Part shown: positions 24,560 through 59,800 of the stretch, piece after piece
Layout of the letters: every line of letters begins with the position of its first letter
Position numbering within the stretch: position 1 is the stretch's first letter
Assembly: GCF_963506605.1 (NCBI RefSeq)
Contig: NC_083281.1
Span: 16,244,001-16,308,000, forward strand
Direction: 5' to 3'
Length of the DNA stretch: 64,000 nucleotides
From: Zootoca vivipara
Lineage: Eukaryota
The notes under the pieces: generated by a model
Database searches by the model: none
What the model saw: the letters and a program-made list of their open reading frames with translations, nothing else
Told to the model about the DNA's origin: nothing
Made by a program: the position numbers and the translations under genes

Positions 24560-24780
24560 ACAGGTAGGTAGCCGTGTTGGTCTGAGTCGAAGCAAAATAA
24601 AAAAAATTCCTTCAGTAGCACCTTAAAGACCAACTAAGTTTTTATTTTGGTATGAGCTTTTGTGTGCATGCACACTTCTTCAGATAATTCCCAGAATCGT
24701 ATCTGAAGAAGTGTGCATGCACACGAAAGCTCATACCAAAATAAAAACTTAGTTGGTCTTTAAGGTGCTACTGAAGGAAT
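24560..24780. mobile_element. Penelope-like element remnant (inverted pseudo-LTR pair)
   Basis: acaggtaggtagccgtgttggtct start; inverted 80-bp arms at 24607-24686 and 24700-24779; direct repeat AATGTTTTAATG at 24548-24559 and 24778-24789. Confidence 0.8.
24699..24737 (+). ncRNA. Minimal type I hammerhead ribozyme motif (Penelope-associated)
   Basis: gtat-CTGAAGA-a-gtgtg(catg)cacac-GAAA-gc-TC-atac: intact CUGANGA and GAAA core, helix II, helix I gtat/atac, and a vestigial palindromic helix III. Confidence 0.7.
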
Positions 24781-25196
24781 GTTTTAATGGTTAGTGTGTA
24801 CCAAGTGATTCCTATTTGAATTCATCATTACATAAATAAAACCTTTTAAAGATTTACTTGAAATTCATCTTCCTACTGGACCGAGTTCTTACAATTTACT
24901 GTTTATTTCTGGACTTCACCAAGAACTCCAATTTCTACAGTAATTCAACATGGATTGTCCGGCATCCCTTTAATGATGACACGGTTCTGCCTCTTTTTAA
25001 TGCCCAGCCAGACTCTTGGCCTTTTATAATCTACTTTGAATGGTTGCCCTTCTCCATTCTCTCCCAAGCAGAGGCCCACTGGCCATTTGCAAGGTGCCTC
25101 CAAGGAGCAACAACTCATAGTGCAAAATCACTTACCCTCCCCGTGTCCCCCCGTCCCCGTGTCCCCGAGACATTCCCAGAATCGCAGAAGCCGCCC

Positions 25197-25396
25197 NNNN
25201 NNNNNNNNNNNNNNNNNNNNNNNNNNNNNNNNNNNNNNNNNNNNNNNNNNNNNNNNNNNNNNNNNNNNNNNNNNNNNNNNNNNNNNNNNNNNNNNNNNNN
25301 NNNNNNNNNNNNNNNNNNNNNNNNNNNNNNNNNNNNNNNNNNNNNNNNNNNNNNNNNNNNNNNNNNNNNNNNNNNNNNNNNNNNNNNNNNNNNNNN
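25197..25396. other. Assembly gap (200 N)
   Basis: Run of n characters. Confidence 0.99.
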
Positions 25397-25659
25397 TTTC
25401 CTTTTTCTACTTCCTTCTGCCTTATCAGCCAACCCAGGAACAGCTGGAATAGCTCGTTCGTGGGAGCATGAGACTATCAACCTCGGGGTCTTGGGTTTCG
25501 AGTCCCACGTTGCGCAAAAATATTCCTGCATTGCAGGCGGTTGGACTAGATGGTCCTCCAGTTGGGCCCCTCCAACTACGTGCTGTATACGATTCTATGA
25601 ATGAGTTGGTTGTTGTTTAGTCGTTTAGTCGTGTCCGACTCTTCGTGACCACAGATTAT

Positions 25660-26260
25660 AAGGAGCGGGGTCGACTCGAGGCAGGACATGGGCAGCCTGA
25701 GGATACGGCGGGTGGTCGTTGGCGATGCCTTCCGCCTCTCGCCTAGGAAATCCACGCGTCGGCGTTCGCGTAACGTCGGAACGGTCTTTGTACACGTGAA
25801 CGGGGCGCAGCCGAGACCCCTCCCCCCGCCGCCGCTCGCCCTCCTACACGTGCCTCCCCGCCCCTCCCACCCGTCAAGGCGCCCGGCCCCGCCCTCGCAC
25901 ATGTCTCCGCGTTCTGTCCCCGCCCCGTCACGTGCCCGCGCACCGGGCTCCTCGCCTCGCACGTGGCTGGTGAGGCCGCCCAGGAGGGCCGGGCGCCTGG
26001 CAAGAGCCTAGCCCATTGGCTGGCGGGGCCGCCGCTCAGTGCGGAGGGACGGGGCTACGGCTGCCGCCGCCGCCGCTGTCGCGACCTTTGTGTCGGGGAA
26101 GGAAGGAAGAGCGGACAGGAGGGCGCAGGTAAAGACTCCCCTTCTCCGCCTCGGGTGCATGGCTCCGGGGAGGGCGCGGGGGAAGGGGGCGCCTTGCAGG
26201 GGGAACGAGAACCGCCCCCGCGCCGTGGGCCACGATTGCACAGCCCCCTCCCTCCCTGCA
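25660..26260 (+). promoter_or_regulatory. CpG-island promoter with E-box cluster and probable non-coding exon 1 of the CIPC-like gene
   Basis: CACGTG at 25793, 25847, 25929 and 25960; CACGCG 25753; CACATG 25898; GC boxes; ATTGG near 26014; donor CAG|GTAAAG after 26128. Confidence 0.7.
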
Positions 26261-27424
26261 GCATCCTCAATGAGGGCTAGAAGCACCCCCATGTCATGGG
26301 CCATGATTTGAGATGCTCCACCCCCCTTCAGCATCCTCGATGAGGGCTAGAACCATCCCCGTGTCACTGAGTCTGATTAGACAGCCTCCCCCGCCCCCGT
26401 TCACCCCCCTCAAAGAGTGTTAGAACCACCCCATATTACAGGGTTTGGTTGACGCCCCCCCAACTCCCTTCAAAGGGCTTCCTTCCTTCCTTGCCTGTTT
26501 TTAAGCAGAGGTTGGGCTGCCACCTGCCAGGAATTCTTCAGCTGCGATTCCTGCAACTCAGGGTTGGACTAGATGACCCTTAGTTCCCACCCTCTTGATT
26601 CTATGATTCGCCTTCCTCCATGAGGACTAGGGAGCCCCTCTCCTTTGAGTGCCACGAGCTGCCCCCTGCTGCTCCCAGGTGGGGCAGAAAAGGGGGCTGC
26701 TGGCTTTGCACCACTGATGGACAGACAGTTGCCAGGGTCTCTTGCCTCCCCCAATAATAATAGTTTTCCAAACGACCTCCATCAAATTCATCTTCTGCCC
26801 GTCCCTCCTGGATTGAGATGCTGCTGGTGATGCCTGGCATTTGGACCCAACCCACCCTCTTCCCCAGCCCCCTGCTGCCTCTATTCCCCTTTACCCCAGA
26901 CGCCCCCACTGCCGTTCAGCTAAATACCCCCTGGGCTCTGGGATTGGTGGTGTTCCATGAGGTGACCCAAAGAGGTCTTTTTTTGGGGGGGGTCGGGTGG
27001 CCTCTGTGGTTGTTCCTGGTTAAAGAAGCCAGATTATCCTCCACAAGGGCCAGGGCTTTTTCAGTGATGGCTCCAACCTGGTGCAATGCTCTGTTCCATG
27101 AGACTAGGGCCATGCGGGACTTGATCTCCTTCCGCAGGGCCTGTAAGTAAAGAGTTATTCCGCCTGGCCTTCAATTTAGCCTGATCCCCCATTCCTTTTC
27201 CCCTTCCCTTTTTTATGAAGAAACCCTTCTGGGCCCCTACATTTAAACTCTTCCCTGGTCTCCTTGCTGGCCTTAGCAGGACTAACTTGGACAGTTAGCC
27301 CTGGCAATGCTACATTGATGTTGTATTTTATGCTGTTTTTAAAGTCGTTTTTAATCAATGTTTTATATTTGTTGTTAGCCACCCTGAGCCTGGTTTCTAA
27401 ACTGGGAAGGGCGGGGTATAAATA

Positions 27425-27461
<37 letters not shown>

Positions 27462-28309
27462 CTGGGAGAAGTGTCCACTTTGTGGCTCAGGACTGGGGAA
27501 ACCTCTTAAGGGAGGGGGCAGGTGAGGGCACCCATTGCGAGGACCCCTCAGTGCTGGTGGGCGGAAGCAGGAATCATGGATTTTTTTAAAAAAAAAACAC
27601 ACCCATGAAATTGTAGAGTTGGAAGAGACTCCAAGGGGTCATCTAGCCCAACCCCCTGCAATGTAGGCATCTCAGCTAAACATCTTATAGAAGCTGCTGT
27701 CATTGTCCCAGGGTATCTGTGCTCTCTTGCCTCCCCGCCTGACACCCAGGACCCTTCCAGGTCAGTAGGACCTGGGGCAGGCTTGTTTCCTGCTGCAGGA
27801 CAGGACCTGAACCAGTGAATTCAGATTGCAAGATTTTTGAGGGTAAGAGTTGTTCAGCTGTGGAATGGACTCCCTTGCAACATGAGGGGATATTTGAAGA
27901 TGGCTCTCCTATCTCCCCTCAGTCTCTTCTTCTCCAGTCTAAACATACCCAGCTCCTTCAACTGTTCCTCATCAGACTTGCTTTCCAGACCCTTGAATCA
28001 TCTTGGTTGCCCTCTTCTGTCCACATTCTACCTTGTCAACATCCTTCTTAAATTGTGGTTCCCAGAATTGAACACAGTATTCCAGGGATGGTCTGATCAA
28101 GGCAGAACAGAGTGGGACTATTGCTTCACTTGATCAGAACACTAGACGTCTGTTGAGGCAGCCTAGAATAGCGTTAGCTTTTTTTGCTGCTGCATCGCAC
28201 AGTTGACTCATGTTCAGCTTGTCCACCAAGGCCCCTAGATACTTTCCACATGTGCTGCTAATAAGCCAGGTGTCCCCATCCTATATTTGTGTATCTGGTT
28301 GTTCTTGCC

Positions 28310-28445
28310 CAGGCATCCCCAAACTTCGGCCCTCCATATGTTTTGGACTACAATTCCCATCATTCCTGACCACTGGTCCTGTTAGCTAGGGATCATGGGA
28401 GTTGTAGGCCAAAACATATGGAGGACCGCAGTTTGGGGATGCCTG
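28310..28445. mobile_element. hAT MITE
   Basis: TIR caggcatccccaaac / gtttggggatgcctg; TSD TTCTTGCC at 28302-28309 and 28446-28453. Confidence 0.88.
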
Positions 28446-28943
28446 TTCTTGCCTAAGTGCAGAACCTCACTCTGGTCCCTACTGAAACTCATTTTGTAAG
28501 TTTGGGCCCAGTTCTCCAATCTGTGAAGGTCATTTTGAATTCTGATTCTGTCTTCTGTGGCATTAGCTACCCCCCCCCCAAGTTTGGTGTCACCTGCATC
28601 CCCTCATCTGCTTAACTGCCCTCCCCCCATATTTTATTCATGTTGGCACCCCTGTCCTTAAGCTTTTTGAAATAAGCCTTCTGAAAGTGCAGAGTGCATG
28701 CCTGACTACACTCATCTTTCCTTTGCTTGTGTATAATGAAACCCAAGAAAACATGATCAATTCCTCCCGAGGTTCCCAGTGCTTCCACCTCGTCGATCGG
28801 TTCCTCTATGTTGGTGAGGACCAGGTCCAAGATAGATGACCCCCTTGTTGCTTCTTCTACCTTCTGGGAAATGAAACTGTCAGTGAGGCAATGGAGGAAT
28901 TAGCTGGATCTTACATTCTTGGCAGAGTTTGCATTCCAACATA

Positions 28944-29202
28944 CAGTGGTACCTCTGGATGCGAACAGGATCCGTTCCGGAGCCCCGTTCGCAACCAGAG
29001 CAATACACAGCCTGAAGCGCCGAATCTGTGCATGCTCACGCGATTCAGCACTTCAGCGCATGCGTGTGACGTCATTCGTCGCGTCTGCGCATGCGTGAAT
29101 CGCTGAACCCGGAAGTAACCTGTTCCGGCACTTCCGGGTTTGGCGCATTCGTAACCCGTGATATACGCAACCGTCAGCGAAGGTAACTAGAGGTATGACT
29201 AT
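28944..29202. mobile_element. Tigger/pogo-like MITE
   Basis: ta-cagtggtacctc ... gaggtatgacta-ta termini; related copies at about 38118-38345 and 46258-46480. Confidence 0.7.
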
Positions 29203-32200
29203 ATATCGGGTAGTCCAAGTCTCCTTTGACTACAATATCTTTCATTTGTGATTGTTTGGTAATCTGCTCTAGGAAGGCATCATGCAAATCTTCCGTCTGG
29301 CTTGCTGGTCTATCGCAGACAACCACAGTTAAGATCAATGTTGTTTCTCTCTCCTACAAATTTTACCCATTTACTCTCAATCTGCTTTTCATGTTCCAGG
29401 CTATGGATTTCTTCACAAGTGTACACATCCTTTACATATAATGCTGCTGGTTCTCTCTTCCTGCTGATCTATTTCTTTTGAGCAGGTCATACCCCTCAAT
29501 TCCTACATTCCAGCGATTAGTCTTATCCCACCAGGTTTCAGTAATGTTTATTAGGTCATGTCAACCTGTAGTAAGTGATCCAATTTGTCTTGCTTGTTTC
29601 CATACTCTGTGCAATAGTATAGACACAGCTGAAATCACGAGTCCTTCCTCTACACACTGCTGCCTCTCTCCACATCAGTAGGGAGTTACCTGCCGGCACC
29701 GCATGTGTCTTCCTTTTTCTGGGGAGCAGCAGGAACTGCTACCTCAGTTTGTTTTGGGGTTCGGAAACTGCTGTTCTTGCTCTCTTCTGGCCGAAAACCG
29801 GTGTCCGAGGCGAGGGCATGGAATCAGTCTTGTATTTCCAGAGACACAGCAAGGCTCCTGACTGTTTTGCTTTTTTGTGTCACATTCCTCTGGAGTTGGG
29901 CGATCTTTCTCCCTAGGGGCACCCCACCTATGTCTCTTTTCCAGGTCAGTCCATTCCTGTCTAGTGAGAATTTAGTCATCTTACCCGGTGGCTCAAAGTG
30001 TGAATAGGTGGAACTGGAGTCGCTGTACCTTCTCTTCCGGGAAGGCAACCAGATTGCACTTGCTGCAGGTGTGGTTTTGCACGTTCTCAGGCAGGAAGAG
30101 AAACATGGCATACGAGCCGCGCATGCCACAAGCACGCAGATTGTCTTGCGTGCACCTTTAAGGCTTGGTTGCAAGAAATCAACAGGTGCCCTGTGAATAT
30201 TGGTGAGCTTAGTGTCATTGACAGTATGGGATCAGACCTGTAGTATTTTGTGTCCTAGGCCTGTTTTGCATGTGTTTATTTATGTATGTGCCCACCTGGT
30301 GCCCTCCAGGCATTTTGGACTACAACTCCCATCAGCCCCAGCCAGTGCACCATGAATTGCAGTTTCCGCTAAGGGGCAATGCACACACCTTGATTCCTTT
30401 ACCTTTGAATGTGGGAATCTGCTCTGTGTGTGTGTGTGTATTCAGGGTGATGTGAGGTAACACCCGGGCTGCCCAGTTCACATGTGCAAGTCGACGCTTC
30501 TCTTTGCAGGCACCCAGTTTTGGAGTGTGCACAGATCCTGGCCAATCCCCGAGCGCCCCCCTCCCCAGTCAAGGTAGAGGGATCCACACCCTTCCTTAGC
30601 GTGTGGGGCTGGTGGAAGCCCTGGGCTTTTCTTCCCAAATGCATAGCCATTCATCAGACCGTGTCTGTTTCCCCAGCTCTGCATGTGGGCCAGTAGCCCA
30701 AGGACTTCCTTTGCCAGCCGCTTCTGCTGTGTCTGATCTCGCACTCATGACCAGGGTTGCGTCATGTGGGTACTGTTTAGTGGAACCAGTTGAACCAGAA
30801 GACAGCTTTTGGGCAGGGATGAGCCCAGGACAAGCAGAAGAAGATTGGAGAAAGTTATGGGAACCAGACAGGCAGCTCTCATGTTGACTCCAGGAATATT
30901 TTTAATTTCCCTGCTTAGCCTGCTGCAAACAGGCAGTATCACTGGTGTCCTCAAAGGGCCATCAAAATGATTTCCATTTCCATTCCAGGTCAAGGCCCTG
31001 ATTAACATCACAACTAGCTTTATGCCACTGTAAGTTGGCTCTTTCCCATGATGCGTATGAGGCTCCCCCACCCCAAAAGCTCCAGTCCTTTTCGGCGATG
31101 CAGGGGGTTGGACTAGATGACCCCTGGGGTCCCTTCCAACTCTACAGTTCTATGATTCCGTGAACTCCTGGCTAGATTCTGAGTTGCTGCTTTGTGCGAT
31201 CGGAATGGCCCTGTGTGGATCTACTCCCTGTCTCGCGGTGAGGTCTTTTGGGTGCAAGGCCACAGATGTTTGTTGTCAAGTGGAATAAGATGTTCGTCAC
31301 AAGAGGCTGTTGTCCCCTGCTCAGTCACCAGCTCATCACTGGGTTTGGCAGCCCTCCATCCCCAACGCCAGTTGCCATGTTTAGTTAAGACGTGGCACAT
31401 TCAGGACAGATAAAAGAAAAGGAAGTCCATACACAGTGCATAGTTAATCTGTGGAACTCCCTCCCACAGGAGGCAGTCGTTGCCCCCAACCTAGATGGCT
31501 TTAAAAGAGGATTGGACAGATTCATGGAGGAGAGTTCTATCGGTGGCTACTAGCCACAGTGGCTTTGTTCTGCCCTCCACAGTCAAGAGGCAGCAATGCT
31601 TCTGAATCCTAGTTGCTGGAAACCACAGGAGGAGAGAGTTGCTCTTGTGCTCAGATCCTGCTTGTGGGCTTCCTCTTGGGGCATCTGTTTGGTGACTTGG
31701 CAACTGCATGTGCGAAAGGCCTCTGTTGAGTGGAAAGCTCTCTCCTTGAGGTGCCACGATTCCTCTGCTTCAAGGAAGCTATTAGGCTGGGATATTTGAT
31801 ATTTGCATCATCATCACCTTTTCCTTTAGCTTATTGATGTGCATGGATGACCCCGGAGTGTTGCTCTTTGCCATCTCCTTGGATATTTTGAATTTGCTGC
31901 TCTTCTCTTTTTCAGTTCTTGTGATATGTGGGTTCAGATCCTCCCTCTTGCCATGGTTTGGGTTTCATTGCTGCATCTGTCACCCTCAATTTCTTTTCTG
32001 TGAATTATAGAAACGTGTTATGATGTTGCAGGGAAGAGCAAATTCCATACAGGTTAAAGGGAAATGCTTTGCAAATGGAAATTGCTGCATGAGGGATTCA
32101 TAATAATGGGCTGGGCTAGACTTTGCTTGTTTATTCTGTGCTGCATTTTTTCCTCGCCCTGGATTTTGGGTTCCTGCTGAATCGCTGTCAGCAACTGGGT

Positions 32201-49913: not shown

Positions 49914-50355
49914 TGTTATTTGCTCCCCTCCCTTCACCTTAAGGTCCCAGAGCAGGTCACAACATTGGAAATTTGTCCAAAACAACCTGGAATAATAAAA
50001 GCAAGGTGGGTCCTAAAAACAAGAGACCTCAAGTGACAAAAGGCCAGGGTAAGGGGGGGCATATTCAGCATCCTCTGGAGCTGAAGGTGCCAGGTGCAGG
50101 TACCCTCCTATGTTCTTCAGAAGAAAATAGGGACATTTCTCACCCCCCCAACTGACCCTATTTGACACACCCATTTTTTGTCCCCCACCCACAGAGCATT
50201 CCCTATCAGAATAAGGGCAAGCGCCGCCACCACTACACCAATGGGACACAGCTCACACACCCTCCTCTCTCTTGAGAAAACCCCTTAATCCTGATTTTAT
50301 TTCACTTTATTCTTTAGTAGATTTGCAAGAAGAAAAATGCACACCAATAAATTTT

Positions 50356-50477
50356 TACCAAAAAAATTCCTTCCAGTAGCACCTTAGAGACCAACTAAGT
50401 TTGTTATTGGTGTGAGCTTTCGTGTGCATGCACACTTCTTCAGATACCGGCAGACCAACACGGCTACCTACCTGTAA
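50356..50477. mobile_element. Short Penelope-like inverted remnant
   Basis: Same pseudo-LTR sequence as at 24560 and 46701, joined to an inverted terminus; direct repeat CAATAAATTTT at 50345-50355 and 50478-50488. Confidence 0.75.
50409..50448 (-). ncRNA. Minimal type I hammerhead ribozyme motif (Penelope-associated)
   Basis: Reverse complement ggtat-CTGAAGA-a-gtgtgcatgcacac-GAAA-gc-TC-acacc; core intact, one helix I mismatch. Confidence 0.65.
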
Positions 50478-50531
50478 CAATAAATTTTAGAAGGGGACAA
50501 GGTTAGACATGGATGCACAAAGCATTTTTTA

Positions 50532-51390: not shown

Positions 51391-53712
51391 TAATAGCGGT
51401 AACCTACAGAACATATAAAACACTTACAAAACATTGCATATAAAAACATGCAATATAAAACAGAATTTGGTAAAAACTAGGATGCATCATGTGTGTTTTG
51501 TGCACTGGGGAATGTTTAGTGAAATCCGCGTCTAGAGAAAGTTAGCCAGTCGAGAGAGCTCTGAGTTTCAGGGCCTGCAAGATATAGATGGCCACTCCAC
51601 GGGTAATCCTGGGGTTAGCGTCCACCAATAGAAATTTCATGCGGTCATCTTCCAAGGCGATAAGCGAAGGGATTAGTGTGAGGAGCCTTGGTCTTATTGC
51701 GTCGTATAAGGGGCAGTGAAAGAAAAAATGGATAAAATCCTCTATCTTTCCCTTGTTGCACGGGCAGAGTCGGAGATCGGGGGGAGTGTTGGAAAATATA
51801 CCCTGTAAAAATGCTGTGGGAATGGAATGGAAGCGGGCAAGTGTGAAGGCCCTTCTTTGTGAAGGGTTCGTCAGGTCGCTCAAATAGTGAGCCATAGTTC
51901 TTACTGCCTTCACACGATAACATGTGGATAGGTTGGCCGCATTAGATAGGGCCAGGTCCAATGCTTCGTCCCTATCTAGAATCCATTTACGGATTTTATC
52001 ATTGTCCCAAGCGATCAGAGCGGAGAAAGTTGGGAGGGAATAGCGTTCACAGATGGCCTCCGTGCCTTTTGACCTAATGTGGCTGCCAGTAAAGGCTAGA
52101 AAGGCTTGTTTGGCAAGAAGCAAGTTGGGGGCTTCTGCAAGAGATTTATAATAAGTGATTATCCTGGTGTGAGCTCTTGCCACAATAGATGGCAGTCCCA
52201 GTTCCATTCTTAATTGGGCGGGGATGGTCCCGTTGGGGAGACCCAAGATCTTTCTTACCAGGAGGTTTTGCAGGGTCTCCAGGCGTTGGAGTGCTTTCAA
52301 ATTCCACCCCCATATTTCCACCCCGTATAGCAACATTGGAGGGATTTTGCTGATGTAGACCTTTCTTATTGGCGCCACCAGCTGGCCTCCTTTGGCATAT
52401 AAATTTTTTACCACGGCCTCCATGGTTTGGCGGCCGGCCAAAATGATCGTGTTTAGGTGAGCTGACCACGATAGCCTATGATGGAAAGTAATGCCCAAGT
52501 ATTTAAAAACTGGGCATTGTTCTATGGTGTTGCCCTCGAGAGTCCACAAAGGACTCCGTTTCCGCGTGCCAAAGGGTATGATTTTGGTTTTGGAGTAATT
52601 GATTTTCAATGAGTTTTCCTCACAATATTGCATAAGCCCTTTCAACATGTTGTTAAGTCCTAACTTTGTTAACGAGAGGACTGCCATATCGTCCGCATAG
52701 AGTAAGATGGGGACTTTAGCCTGATTCAAAGACGGGGCAGGTTGGTTAAGGGCTTTTATAGCTGGTACAATATCGTTTATATAAAAATTGAACAAAAAGG
52801 GAGCCAAAAGGCAGCCTTGTTTGACACCTCTGGCTAGTGGAAAGGGGCGTGATAGAGCGCCGTGTGGTCCAAATTTCACTCTGGCCGATATGTCTGAGTG
52901 AATTTCCATTAGCAGGCATAAGAGCCTTTTGTCTATAGTAGTTGAGCTAAGCTTCTGCCAGAGTCTGGATCTGTCAATAGAGTCAAAGGCGGAGGACAAA
53001 TCAATGAAGGCTACATATAATTTGGAGTTATACTTGGTTTGGTATTTATCAATCAATGATTGGAGAACCAGACAGTGGCCTGAGGTGTTATGGCCTTTGC
53101 GAAAGCCCGCTTGTTCTGGGTGGAAAAGCCCTATTTCATCAGCCCAGCTGGACAGCTTCTCGAGAAGGAATCTAGAGTAGATCTTGTAGGTTATGTCCAG
53201 TAGGCTGATAGGCCTATAGTTAGAAGGATCTTGCGGGTTCCCCTTTTTATAGATAGGAATGATTGTGCTCTTTTTCCAATCTGTCGGAAGCGTAAGTGAA
53301 GAGTTTATGGTGGTAAAGAGAGAGGCTAGTGTAGTTGCCCACCAAAGTTGGTTTGATAGAAAAACCTCGGGTGGTAGCATGTCTTCCCCGGGTGATTTTC
53401 CACCCTTTAGCAAACCAATCAGCTGGAAGCATTTCTTTGAGGAGACCGGATCCCATATGGTGAGAGAGGAGCTGCAGCAAGCCAGAGGGATTGGGTTTTT
53501 ATTTGGAAGAGGCACGGCGTATGCCAGCTATCTGCAGGAATGTTGTTGCAGGGGGGGCAGGGGAGGTTAAGCCCGAGTTTATTAGTTGCCAAAATTTCTT
53601 ATCATCTCGGCGTCTAGTAGCAGCGTCCAATTCGGTCCATTGTTCTTTGGCAAAGAGTAGTTTCTTGAGTTTAAGTAACTGTTTGTAGTGTGTGCGGAAT
53701 TGAGCAACCGCC
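51285..53712 (-). mobile_element. 5'-truncated non-LTR retrotransposon, probably RTE-X clade, with a 657-codon open RT frame (51542-53515)
   Basis: RT motifs NYRPISLL, QAGFR, FIDLSSAFDSI, GVKQGCLLAPFLF, LLYADD, YLGI; C-terminal CPC..ED..HFFFHCP knuckle; 3' end with AATAAA then a short (TTGA)n tail. Confidence 0.88.
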
Positions 53713-56855: not shown

Positions 56856-59800
56856 ATGGAACTCTTTGGAGTGTTGCCCTTCTTGCTGGTCTCCTGCATC
56901 ACCTTCTTGCTTATCCTAATCCGGAGGAGAGATGCCACAAAGGGCAAACTGCCCCCAGGCCCCACCCCATTGCCTTTGATAGGCAACTTGCTCCAGTTGA
57001 ATATTCGGGACATCATCGGGTCTTTTAATAAGGTGAGTGTAGGTCTCTGCTGCGTAGCGTTTGGGGGGGGGGAGCCAAGGAGCTGATTGTTTATTTCCTT
57101 GACATCTGATGGGAGGGCGTTCCACAGGGCAGGTGCCACTACCGAGAAGGCCCTCTGCCTGGTTCCCTGTAACGTTGCTTCTCTCAGTGAGGGAACCACC
57201 AGAAGGCCCTCGGAGGTGGACCTCAGTGTCCGAGCAGAACGATGGGGATGGAGACACTCCTTCAGGTATACTGGTGTTTCAAGTGTTCAGGATCTTTCCT
57301 TTGCTGCACCACCTGATTATGTTTCAATACAAGTAGATATTTCTTCTCGTTATCAGCAAGTAGCTGCTTGGGAGCTCATGGGCAGCTTCTTAGCTTTTAC
57401 CTTTTCACCGGGATGCGGTAACATTTTGTCCAAATTTTATAAATATTTTTATTAAGTTTTACATAACGAATTCCAATTAAAACATATCACAATCACCTTA
57501 CATTTAGGATTCTCAGAATCCCTTGACTTCCCCCCGCCCTTCTCTGGTTTCCATTTCCCATCTCTTTTTATTCAACTTATCCATATATATATATTCAACT
57601 TTTGATATGTCTATTATTTAACTTTTCCTTTATATTTTATCCTTTACAAGTATTACTCCAATCCCGCCAAAGTTTTTAGCTGTTTATAATGTTCTCTTAA
57701 ATAAACTATACATTTTCTCCCTTCTTTCTTAAACTTCTTCTCGTCCTGGTCTCTGATTCTCCCAGTCATTTTGGCATAGTCCATCATCTTCATCAGCCAT
57801 TCTTCTCTGGTTGGAACTTTGTCTTCTTTCCATCTATGGGCCAGTAGTATTCTTGCTGCTGTCATAGCATACATAAATAGTCTTTTCTGCTCTTTTGGAA
57901 TCTCTGTACCTATAATGCCTAGAAAAAAGCCTCTGTTTCTTTCACAAAAGTTATTTTAAACATTTTTTATCCCATTATATATCATTTCCCAGAATGCTTT
58001 TGTTACCTTGCACGCCCAGCACATGTGGAAAGACGTGCCTTCCTTTTCTTTGAATTTCCAACATGTATTAGAAGCAGTTCAATACATCTTTGCTAATTTC
58101 ATTGGTGTTAAATACCATCTATACATCATTTTCATATAGTTTTATTTCTACGAACAGCACACTGCAAATTTTAAATTTTCCTTCCATAGTTTTTCCCAAG
58201 ATTCAAATTGAATGCTATGCCCTATATCTTGTGCCCATTTTATCATTACTGATTTGACTTCTTCATCTTTTGTTCAAACCTTGAAAATTCTGTACTGAAT
58301 CATCTTTTCTTATCTACTTTAAACACTTCATTTATTTGGTAGTATTGCAACCAACCTGTAACTAGCTGTCTTATGTCTTCCATATTTTTTAATTTCAATT
58401 GCTGTTCTCTTTCAATGAGCAGCTCTTTATAAGCTGCCGATTCTGCTCTTACATTAACTTTTTTTAAGGATATCGCTTCAATTGGTGAGAGCCACCATGG
58501 GGTTTTCTGTTCTAACAATTTTTTATACTTTCCCCATACACTATAAATTGCATTTCTTATTACATGATTTAAAAAACCTTTATGCACTTTGGTCTTCTCA
58601 TACTACAAATATGCATGTCATCCAAATCTGTTATCATGACCTTCAAGGTCTAAAATATCTGTGTTTTCCCATGTTATCCATTCCTTTAGCCAGCAGAGAC
58701 AGGATGCCTCATAATACAATTTTAAATCTGGCAGAGAGAAGACCCCTCTTTCTTTATCATCTGTTATCAATTTATATTTATTCCTTGGTTTCTTCCCCTG
58801 CAAGATAAATTTAGTTACATATTTTTGCCATTGCTTGAAGTGCTCCTCCCCACTGGCCACAGGTATTGTCTGAAATAAAAACAACATTTTCGGAAATACA
58901 TTATCTTTGTAACAGAAATTCTTCCCCAAAGTGATCAATTCATTCTTCCTCAAATCTCCAGATTCCTCTTTATCTCTTTCCAAGTTGTTCTATAATTATC
59001 CTTAAATATATTTATATTCTTAACAGTTAGCCATACACCCAAATATTCCACCTTTTTTCAAAGGATAATTGCATTGCTAGTTGTAATTCCTTCCACTGTT
59101 ATTACAAGGTCATATGTAAATGCTCTTTATTTATATTCTTTGCACCCACTTTTTGTCCAAATTTTAAGCACTAAGGTGTGATTGATTGATCTCCTGGCAG
59201 CTCCGGAAGCAGTATGGTCCAATCTTCACTGTCTACATGGGCTCCCGGCCAATTGTGGTGCTGTGCGGTTATGAAGTCATCAAGGAAGCACTTGTGGATA
59301 ACGCAGAAACATTTGGAGGAAGGGGACCAATAGAGACCTTGGATGACACCTTGTCGAAATACGGTGGGAGAAATTTGCCTTGCAATGTTAGAAGGCAATT
59401 AATTGATTAATATGTATACCACCCAATCCCACTAAACCTCAGTGTAGTTCAGGAATGGTGGATTACCTGCTTTTGCATGCAGAATGTCCCAACTGCAGTC
59501 TTTGGCATTTGCTCGAGACCCTGGAGAGCGGCTGCCAGTCAGTTTGCTGAGTTAGATGGACCAGGGGGTTGGACCAGAAGACCAGGGGGATCCCTTCCAA
59601 CTCTATGTATCTAAGGCAGATTCCTATGTTCCTTTTCTTCCTATGATCCCTTTCTGGCTTTGTGAATGTGCTGGGAGTGATGGGAGAAAAGGGTGAGGCT
59701 TAAAAAAATCACGAGGAGTCCAAAGAGAGGTGCAGGCATGAATTTGTCTTGTTCGGTTGTGCCATCTCCAGGGGTAGCACTACAAGACTTAATCTACCCC

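Follow-up and report, generated by a model that had tools for sequence, protein, structure and literature searches.

Minimal hammerhead ribozymes (min-HHRs) have been described in Penelope-like retroelements of metazoans, reptiles and pairs on opposite strands included (Cervera and De la Pena 2014, PMC4209133), and as far as the accessible text of that report goes, the minimal hammerhead was inactive in tests as a monomer. On cleavage as a dimer, Lunse et al. are cited in the accessible part of a review (PMC6765202). For the Penelope-like element PAc of Anolis carolinensis, which belongs to the Poseidon clade, the ribozyme was inactive without the element's protein, uncut RNA was the main substrate, and in vitro reverse transcription began at two internal sites while both strands were cleaved and extended (PMC11167929). 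An inverted, 5'-truncated copy and a tail on one side only are typical of insertions in the available text of two further sources (PMC8557442, PMC3846280), of which the second suggests an antisense template for Penelope elements and the first calls their intron retention unexplained. How inverted ends are built, what purpose the ribozyme serves and why introns are kept are stated as open for Penelope elements (PMC8557442, available text; PMC11167929).

Here, we examined a hammerhead motif within a 64-kb stretch of Zootoca vivipara DNA (the whole stretch analysed, hereafter the window). With a probability of roughly 85%, we consider it to be the pseudo-LTR hammerhead of a Neptune-type Penelope-like element, likely carried as an inert passenger in a head-to-head stub within the intron of a lectin gene.

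Results

The hammerhead motif and its insertion

A preliminary description of this DNA had placed a minimal type I hammerhead here, and we located every core element together with helices I and II on the + strand (Table 1). The sequence conforms to the core CUGANGA...GAAA...UH with the pairs C3-G8 and G10.1-C11.1, and when 24695-24745 is folded alone, both helices form with an unpaired base before helix II (-7.9 kcal/mol). Together with the palindromic remnant of helix III, these elements agree with the class named in that description. The Rfam search that it proposed as a check gave a different outcome, as the motif matched no hammerhead family at E ≤ 10 and returned just generic microRNA-hairpin matches below the gathering score; the hammerhead of the outer family described below likewise matched no hammerhead family at E ≤ 1. 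For the inner motif this is expected, because it has a form without helix III. The motif is not a product of chance, since its exact 31-base sequence has 17,895 genomic copies and the reversed control has 0; a 28-base anchor just downstream has 31,292. Compared with the conserved A beside G12, the free core position 7 is far more variable (in most of 1,074 matches). Helix II variants among the first 100 of 278 matches listed are mostly one-sided changes or indels, with one clearly compensatory copy (C2:118527259), and the family is too young for a test of helix II covariation. The 14-mer that forms helix II is itself a perfect palindrome through which two copies of the motif are predicted to pair (-32.2 kcal/mol), which may offer, in addition to AGCU, another way of forming a dimer.

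Table 1 Features of the nested insertions and of the lectin gene in the window
Feature	Position	Strand	Remarks
Head-to-head stub, Neptune-type by its linker motif	24560-24777		218 bp; 12-bp target duplication
Left arm with tail of ~40 nt	24560-24686	-	hammerhead with G12-to-A (C-to-T in CpG, position 24661)
Right arm without tail	24699-24777	+	begins at helix I
Target-site duplication, left copy	24548-24559	+	12 bp
Target-site duplication, right copy	24778-24789	+	12 bp
Junction filler	24687-24699	+	13 nt; exact copy of host DNA 25172-25184
Likely filler template	25172-25184	+	485 bp downstream
Minimal type I hammerhead motif	24699-24736	+	38 nt; from sequence and fold
Helix I strands	GTAT 24699-24702, ATAC 24733-24736	+	4 bp
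Core CTGAAGA	24703-24709	+	bulged A at 24710
Helix II	24711-24724	+	5 bp, loop CATG
GAAA, followed by GC and TC	24725-24728; TC 24731-24732	+	predicted cut 24732/24733
Palindromic AGCU	24728-24731	+	in place of helix III
Older head-to-head stub, second Penelope-like family	24360-24947		arms 24356-24467 / 24803-24914; tail to 24940
Outer target duplication	24347-24359 / 24948-24960		13 bp, one mismatch
Second-family hammerhead core	24515-24546	-	leader joined directly at 24547/24546, exactly at the splice junction of the intron (330-341 nt) in longer copies
First exon of C-type lectin-like domain	23364-23533	+	CCP..W...C...W..S...C
WIGL exon	24217-24293	+	77 nt; donor at 24294 opens the intron holding both stubs

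The two arms of the stub (24601-24686 and 24700-24785) are 98% complementary, with hammerhead motifs merely 19 nt apart. The fold of 24630-24760 reaches -97.3 kcal/mol (z = -21.9), a value that 0 of 200 shuffles equalled, so the hairpin of paired inverted arms that had been proposed stands. In the inverted arm the motif has a single mismatch, T at 24661, which reads as AAAA on the - strand, and its helix I has just 3 bp, the fourth base belonging to the filler. This filler is without counterpart in the parent unit (longest common word 7 nt); its match to host DNA at a distance of 485 bp suggests that the ends were joined at the target. A second copy of the motif on the same strand was sought throughout the window and none was found. 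Another stub of the inner family lies at 50355-50488 on the - strand; its motif is intact, its other arm is a mere 27-nt inverted piece of tail, and a target duplication is present.

The family and its parents

The head-to-head pattern with arms at most 30 nt apart has 1,256 genomic matches, a few of which are nested doubles. Longer copies extend upstream into a GIY-YIG frame, and the intact parents are 3,030-bp tandem units with an open frame of 925 codons that holds RVT_1, a C-x4-C-x2-C linker and GIY-YIG (parent L080: RVT_1 E 5e-12, GIY-YIG E 6e-5, Pfam); the ribozyme is situated ~135 nt upstream of the first ATG. A frame with reverse transcriptase and C-terminal GIY-YIG, pLTRs in tandem or inverted order, a one-sided tail and a target duplication are the hallmarks of an endonuclease-bearing Penelope-like element, and the parent frame thus bears out the Penelope-like origin given in the preliminary description. 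The family would be a young one, of Neptune type by its Cys linker motif alone, a linker also found in Nematis. In pairs picked by pattern, exactly one arm has a tail in 13 of 15 and both arms have one in 0 of 15, and target duplications of 10-17 bp are found in 13 of 15. Junction fillers vary between loci, a few junctions recur, and in many cases the filler duplicates sequence of the arm. Both arms share a rare core variant at C2:26832439/26832490, C2:64775805/64775849 and C4:92215454/92215565 (G000), which fits one template used twice, fold-back or conversion.

The host gene

A contig of 609 bases (X1, from a run guessed to be RNA) joins 23532 to 24216 with GT-AG boundaries and is probably an RNA contig of the lectin gene. 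It departs from the window sequence at 24293, and its remaining 265 bases are nowhere in 24294-32000 as assembled; it probably skips the entire insertion, which would make the motif intronic. From these exon joins the lectin gene reads on the + strand, so the motif is indeed sense to its host gene, as had been proposed; it is placed 405 nt into the intron, however, and not just downstream of the WIGL exon. The host had also been called CD72-like. Its exon is C-type lectin-like, and that part of the name is upheld, but CD72 is missing from the best 60 of 83 PDB matches, the best matches of the 56-aa lectin exon being CLEC6A, CLEC4A and NKG2 (E 1.6e-6 to 3e-5). A coiled-coil-like exon near 19150-19369 may recall CD72. 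Pfam searches with single lectin exons returned no match.

Motif scans of 24294-46000 for the last lectin exon gave nothing convincing, and a candidate near 25070 was rejected as it is missing from contig X1; the exon may lie in the 200-N gap (25197-25396) or beyond 32000. Contigs from another three samples, compared for polymorphism of the insertion, are interrupted at the repeats. The lectin exon continues at 23516-23533 to a weak donor, and the intron before it holds a 99-bp GC-rich tandem repeat (22890-23152) that is partly self-complementary and has low read cover in one RNA run. Elsewhere in the window, three features are named from their translations: a zinc-finger gene frame (11482-12894, +), a LINE-type reverse transcriptase frame (51545-53527, -) and a first exon resembling cytochrome P450 family 2 (56900-57050, +), whose Pfam match is weak (E 0.14).

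An outer element with probably spliced stubs

The inner stub is inserted into another, older stub, within its 5' leader; the hammerhead core of this outer stub (24546-24515, -) is not reported in the preliminary description. This second family has 676 candidates and 76 exact copies of its hammerhead core; its interior at this locus was considered as a host exon and rejected, being a repeat with that many candidates. In the long copy L252, a frame from the reverse transcriptase thumb to GIY-YIG lies upstream (tblastn E 6e-22), from which the second family is Penelope-like as well.

In 27 of 30 core-bearing copies, that of the window included, the leader is joined straight to the core, while in the other 3 of the 30 a pyrimidine-rich stretch ending in CCAG precedes it. 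A search for the leader followed by GT gave 10 matches, 8 of them with a consensus donor; in 4 of these 8 a GT-AG segment of 330-341 bases leads to the core, and in the other 4 there is no intact core within 900 bases. Joined and intron-bearing forms both occur in two leader subfamilies. The segment ends in six bases that make up the 5' strand of helix I, and helix I is consequently absent from the joined form. None of the 33 joined copies counted extends beyond -42, a wall that is not absolute, since L092 (joined, with a damaged core) and L257 (unjoined) reach ~-61. A TATA-like box is found at -72 in 2 of 4 second-family parents scanned.

The simplest reading of these sequences, and a likely one, is that the stub in the window and those like it were copied from the start of a spliced sense RNA; amplification from a few spliced masters is a possible alternative. 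A fuller account would make the stubs run-off products of the mature mRNA 5' end, the 5'-UTR intron an on/off switch for the ribozyme, and the longer copies products primed in the unspliced 3' end. The ribozyme would then be competent just in unspliced RNA, at the read-through 3' end, and dead in the translated mRNA. For this joint account, on/off switch included, we see the odds as evenly balanced. If true, it would account for the retained introns of Penelope elements with no need for an antisense template, and the stubs, tens of thousands in number, would map start sites and splicing across the genome. Our search of the open-access literature returned nothing on spliced genomic Penelope copies.

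Where the stubs end and how they formed

To place the 5' ends of the inner family, we surveyed 97 distinct core-bearing copies at loci from the first 100 listed places. Ends fall 0-13 nt upstream of the core in 43 of the 97 (one, L031, misassigned), 6 lie in the next 30 nt and 4 in the next 56, and 44 copies run past 100 nt; per nucleotide at risk, the rate of ends is 0.04-0.05 near the core and 0.002 beyond -24. A TATA-like box at -35, present in 5 of 6 inner-family parents, would place the RNA start near -7 to -4, going by sequence motifs and the distribution of ends. Cleavage by the ribozyme was considered as the source of the ends and rejected: a further sample, comprising 80 copies with a downstream anchor and enriched for core-damaged copies, has 2 that begin no more than 1 nt from the cut site, without a pile-up, and 26 that begin at +5 or further in. 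This lack of a pile-up at the cut site indicates that the copies derive from uncut RNA. Most short copies stop at or before the likely RNA 5' end and are thus likely run-off products of uncut RNA, and the ends inside the ribozyme suggest that stalling at structure or trimming contributes. A cap-derived extra G before the stub start was also sought, and set aside as confounded by fillers: the non-native bases are G 31, C 23 and A 15, with G in 8 of 13 copies without an inverted arm, a tally confounded in the same way.

The one-sided tails and the duplications of 10-17 bp fit the two start sites and the two-strand cleavage and extension reported for PAc (PMC11167929). The second arm might instead have been made by fold-back (self-priming) or on an antisense template, and not through renewed priming at the opposite strand of the target. 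Self-priming has been argued for Penelope elements of rotifers in the available text of one source (PMC3846280), and it would suit both the many fillers copied from the arm itself and the rare variants sometimes common to both arms (three pairs among 100 listed; L006, L099). On the other hand, the filler at this locus copies host DNA 485 bp away, as fits end-joining of two free target ends, both strands were extended in vitro (PMC11167929), and the second-family stubs that lack the intron require a template both sense and spliced, which counts against the antisense version. We regard this origin of the second arm as unlikely, with some evidence in its favor.

Also improbable, in our judgment, is that the 5' ends pile up through stalling of reverse transcriptase at the folded ribozyme and do not mark a natural RNA start. 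Ends do occur throughout the ribozyme and not solely in the stretch immediately before it, and L092 (spliced) and L257 (unspliced) pass the main wall of the second family. Nevertheless, in each of the two families the ends drop off as a cliff ~30 nt downstream of a TATA-like box, and the second-family wall is 42 nt from the core, passed by 0 of 33 counted spliced copies, with the box at -72 in the two parents noted above.

Very little favors the hairpin of 218 bp being a self-propagating, non-autonomous element, mobile as a unit in the manner of a MITE or retrozyme: the copies are short, alike in size and have target duplications of their own, and a few junctions recur, but fillers differ between loci, the one here copies local DNA, the arms come from several subfamilies, and the stubs are without upstream promoter motifs.

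Fate of the motif in the host transcript

Opposite the motif, the antisense twin had been described as inactive. The change from GAAA to AAAA is present; it is apparently a CpG decay and leaves the fold unaffected. The exact change at 24661 is found in 1,843 copies, compared with 174 for the three possible changes taken together at the neighbouring core base, which is not in a CpG (10.6 times commoner), and the G-to-A in the - arm would thus be a later decay by a common transition. It swaps a G-C for a G-U pair, with a hairpin energy of -142.1 kcal/mol as against -144.2 kcal/mol. Among 42 pairs examined, 27 of which were chosen by likeness to this locus, 32 have two intact arms.

When the full insertion is folded, the pair probabilities of helices I and II round to 0 in the equilibrium prediction. 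The preliminary description had left open whether the paired arms make a folding-dependent switch or simply neutralise the motif. A switch is not borne out, as the layout recurs ~1,250 times, the whole motif is predicted to be paired by the antisense arm, and the window has no further copy on the same strand; full-length pairing, as predicted, agrees with neutralisation. Three raw RNA runs with the same species label cover the exons thinly and the unique flanks in the intron almost not at all, so they are uninformative on cleavage of this pre-mRNA. Family-like RNA reads were abundant, and the reads on the arms derive from other copies, with loose ends; among family reads in these three runs no pile-up of read ends was found at the cut site, a weak test. 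That the intronic hammerhead is a regulatory device of the host which cuts the lectin pre-mRNA on escaping its antisense arm, whose core selection had inactivated, is hardly credible: the motif is intact, sense to the gene and able on its own to adopt helices I and II, and thousands of family transcripts could in principle act as trans partners, yet the head-to-head layout is generic, the arm change is CpG decay irrelevant to pairing, the antisense arm is transcribed before the motif, the weak test of read ends showed no pile-up at the cut site, and monomers were inactive in the accessible text of PMC4209133.

Discussion

In this study, we relate a hammerhead motif in a lectin intron to the element that left it there. 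The insertion may be pictured as follows. The element's protein would have nicked the two target strands 12 bp apart, and reverse transcription would have begun on uncut element RNA at two internal sites just downstream of the ribozyme. Both short copies would then have reached the vicinity of the RNA 5' end, ~4-8 nt before the core, and end-joining by the host would have united them head to head; the filler between them would have been taken from DNA at a distance of 485 bp. Once transcribed in the host pre-mRNA, the motif is predicted to be paired along its full length with the arm that precedes it. Neither a partner nor the element's protein would be at hand, and the intron would be spliced out. 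As far as the evidence goes, the motif has no importance for the lectin gene and is one of tens of thousands of copies of a ribozyme class already described.

The nest of two insertions bears rather on questions about Penelope elements themselves, through 5' walls in two families, uncut ribozymes and a local filler. The intron-less stubs beside intron-bearing longer copies provide a lead on Penelope intron retention, and the presence of an intact young parent in many copies makes these points directly testable. Open-access literature searches returned nothing on lizards and nothing relevant on twin priming or templated fillers.

Compared with the min-HHRs of metazoan Penelope-like elements, as given in the accessible text of PMC4209133, the inner motif is alike in its helix I of 4-5 bp, the unpaired base before helix II, the G10.1-C11.1 pair, the palindromic 15.2-16.2 and the occurrence mostly as single truncated copies. 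It differs in that opposite-strand pairs there are ~100-700 bp apart and the motifs here 19 nt, in that helix II has 5 bp (within the 14-nt palindrome) as against 7-8 bp, and in that the inner family is very uniform, and so young. Like the inverted-pLTR insertions of the Neptune clade in the available text of two sources (PMC8557442, PMC3846280), the stub has an inverted, 5'-truncated copy, a tail of 30-40 bp at one end and a target duplication, and the family shares with that clade a zinc-finger-like linker between reverse transcriptase and GIY-YIG as well as TATA and initiator motifs in the pLTR. Unlike those insertions, both arms here comprise just the last 80-127 nt, with no ORF. With PAc, the family has in common that 3' ends fall at two points past the ribozyme, that copies keep it uncut, and that RNA ends are not seen at the cut site, whereas the ORF of PAc starts inside the ribozyme and the one here ~135 nt downstream (PMC11167929).

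The outer family resembles Penelope of Drosophila virilis, which has a 5'-UTR intron ending at helix I of the hammerhead (PMC2377424, PMC4209133, both in their accessible text) and in which the intron begins 46 nt after the start, compared with ~42 nt after the likely start in the outer family. In contrast to D. virilis Penelope, the outer family has an intron of 330-341 nt whose acceptor lies directly against the catalytic core, so that helix I would lose its entire 5' strand on splicing, and the spliced form predominates among the short copies sampled. Finally, the stub resembles non-LTR retrozymes in being a non-coding, hammerhead-bearing derivative of a Penelope pLTR (bioRxiv 10.64898/2026.07.22.740005, available text). 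Retrozymes, however, are head-to-tail tandems with at least two motifs, and the stub is head-to-head with one motif per strand, which sets it outside that definition. Elsewhere in the genome, a locus of the inner family (L061, G000:C1:2777825-2779649) has four head-to-tail units of 598 bp with the motif intact in each, and it fits the retrozyme definition.
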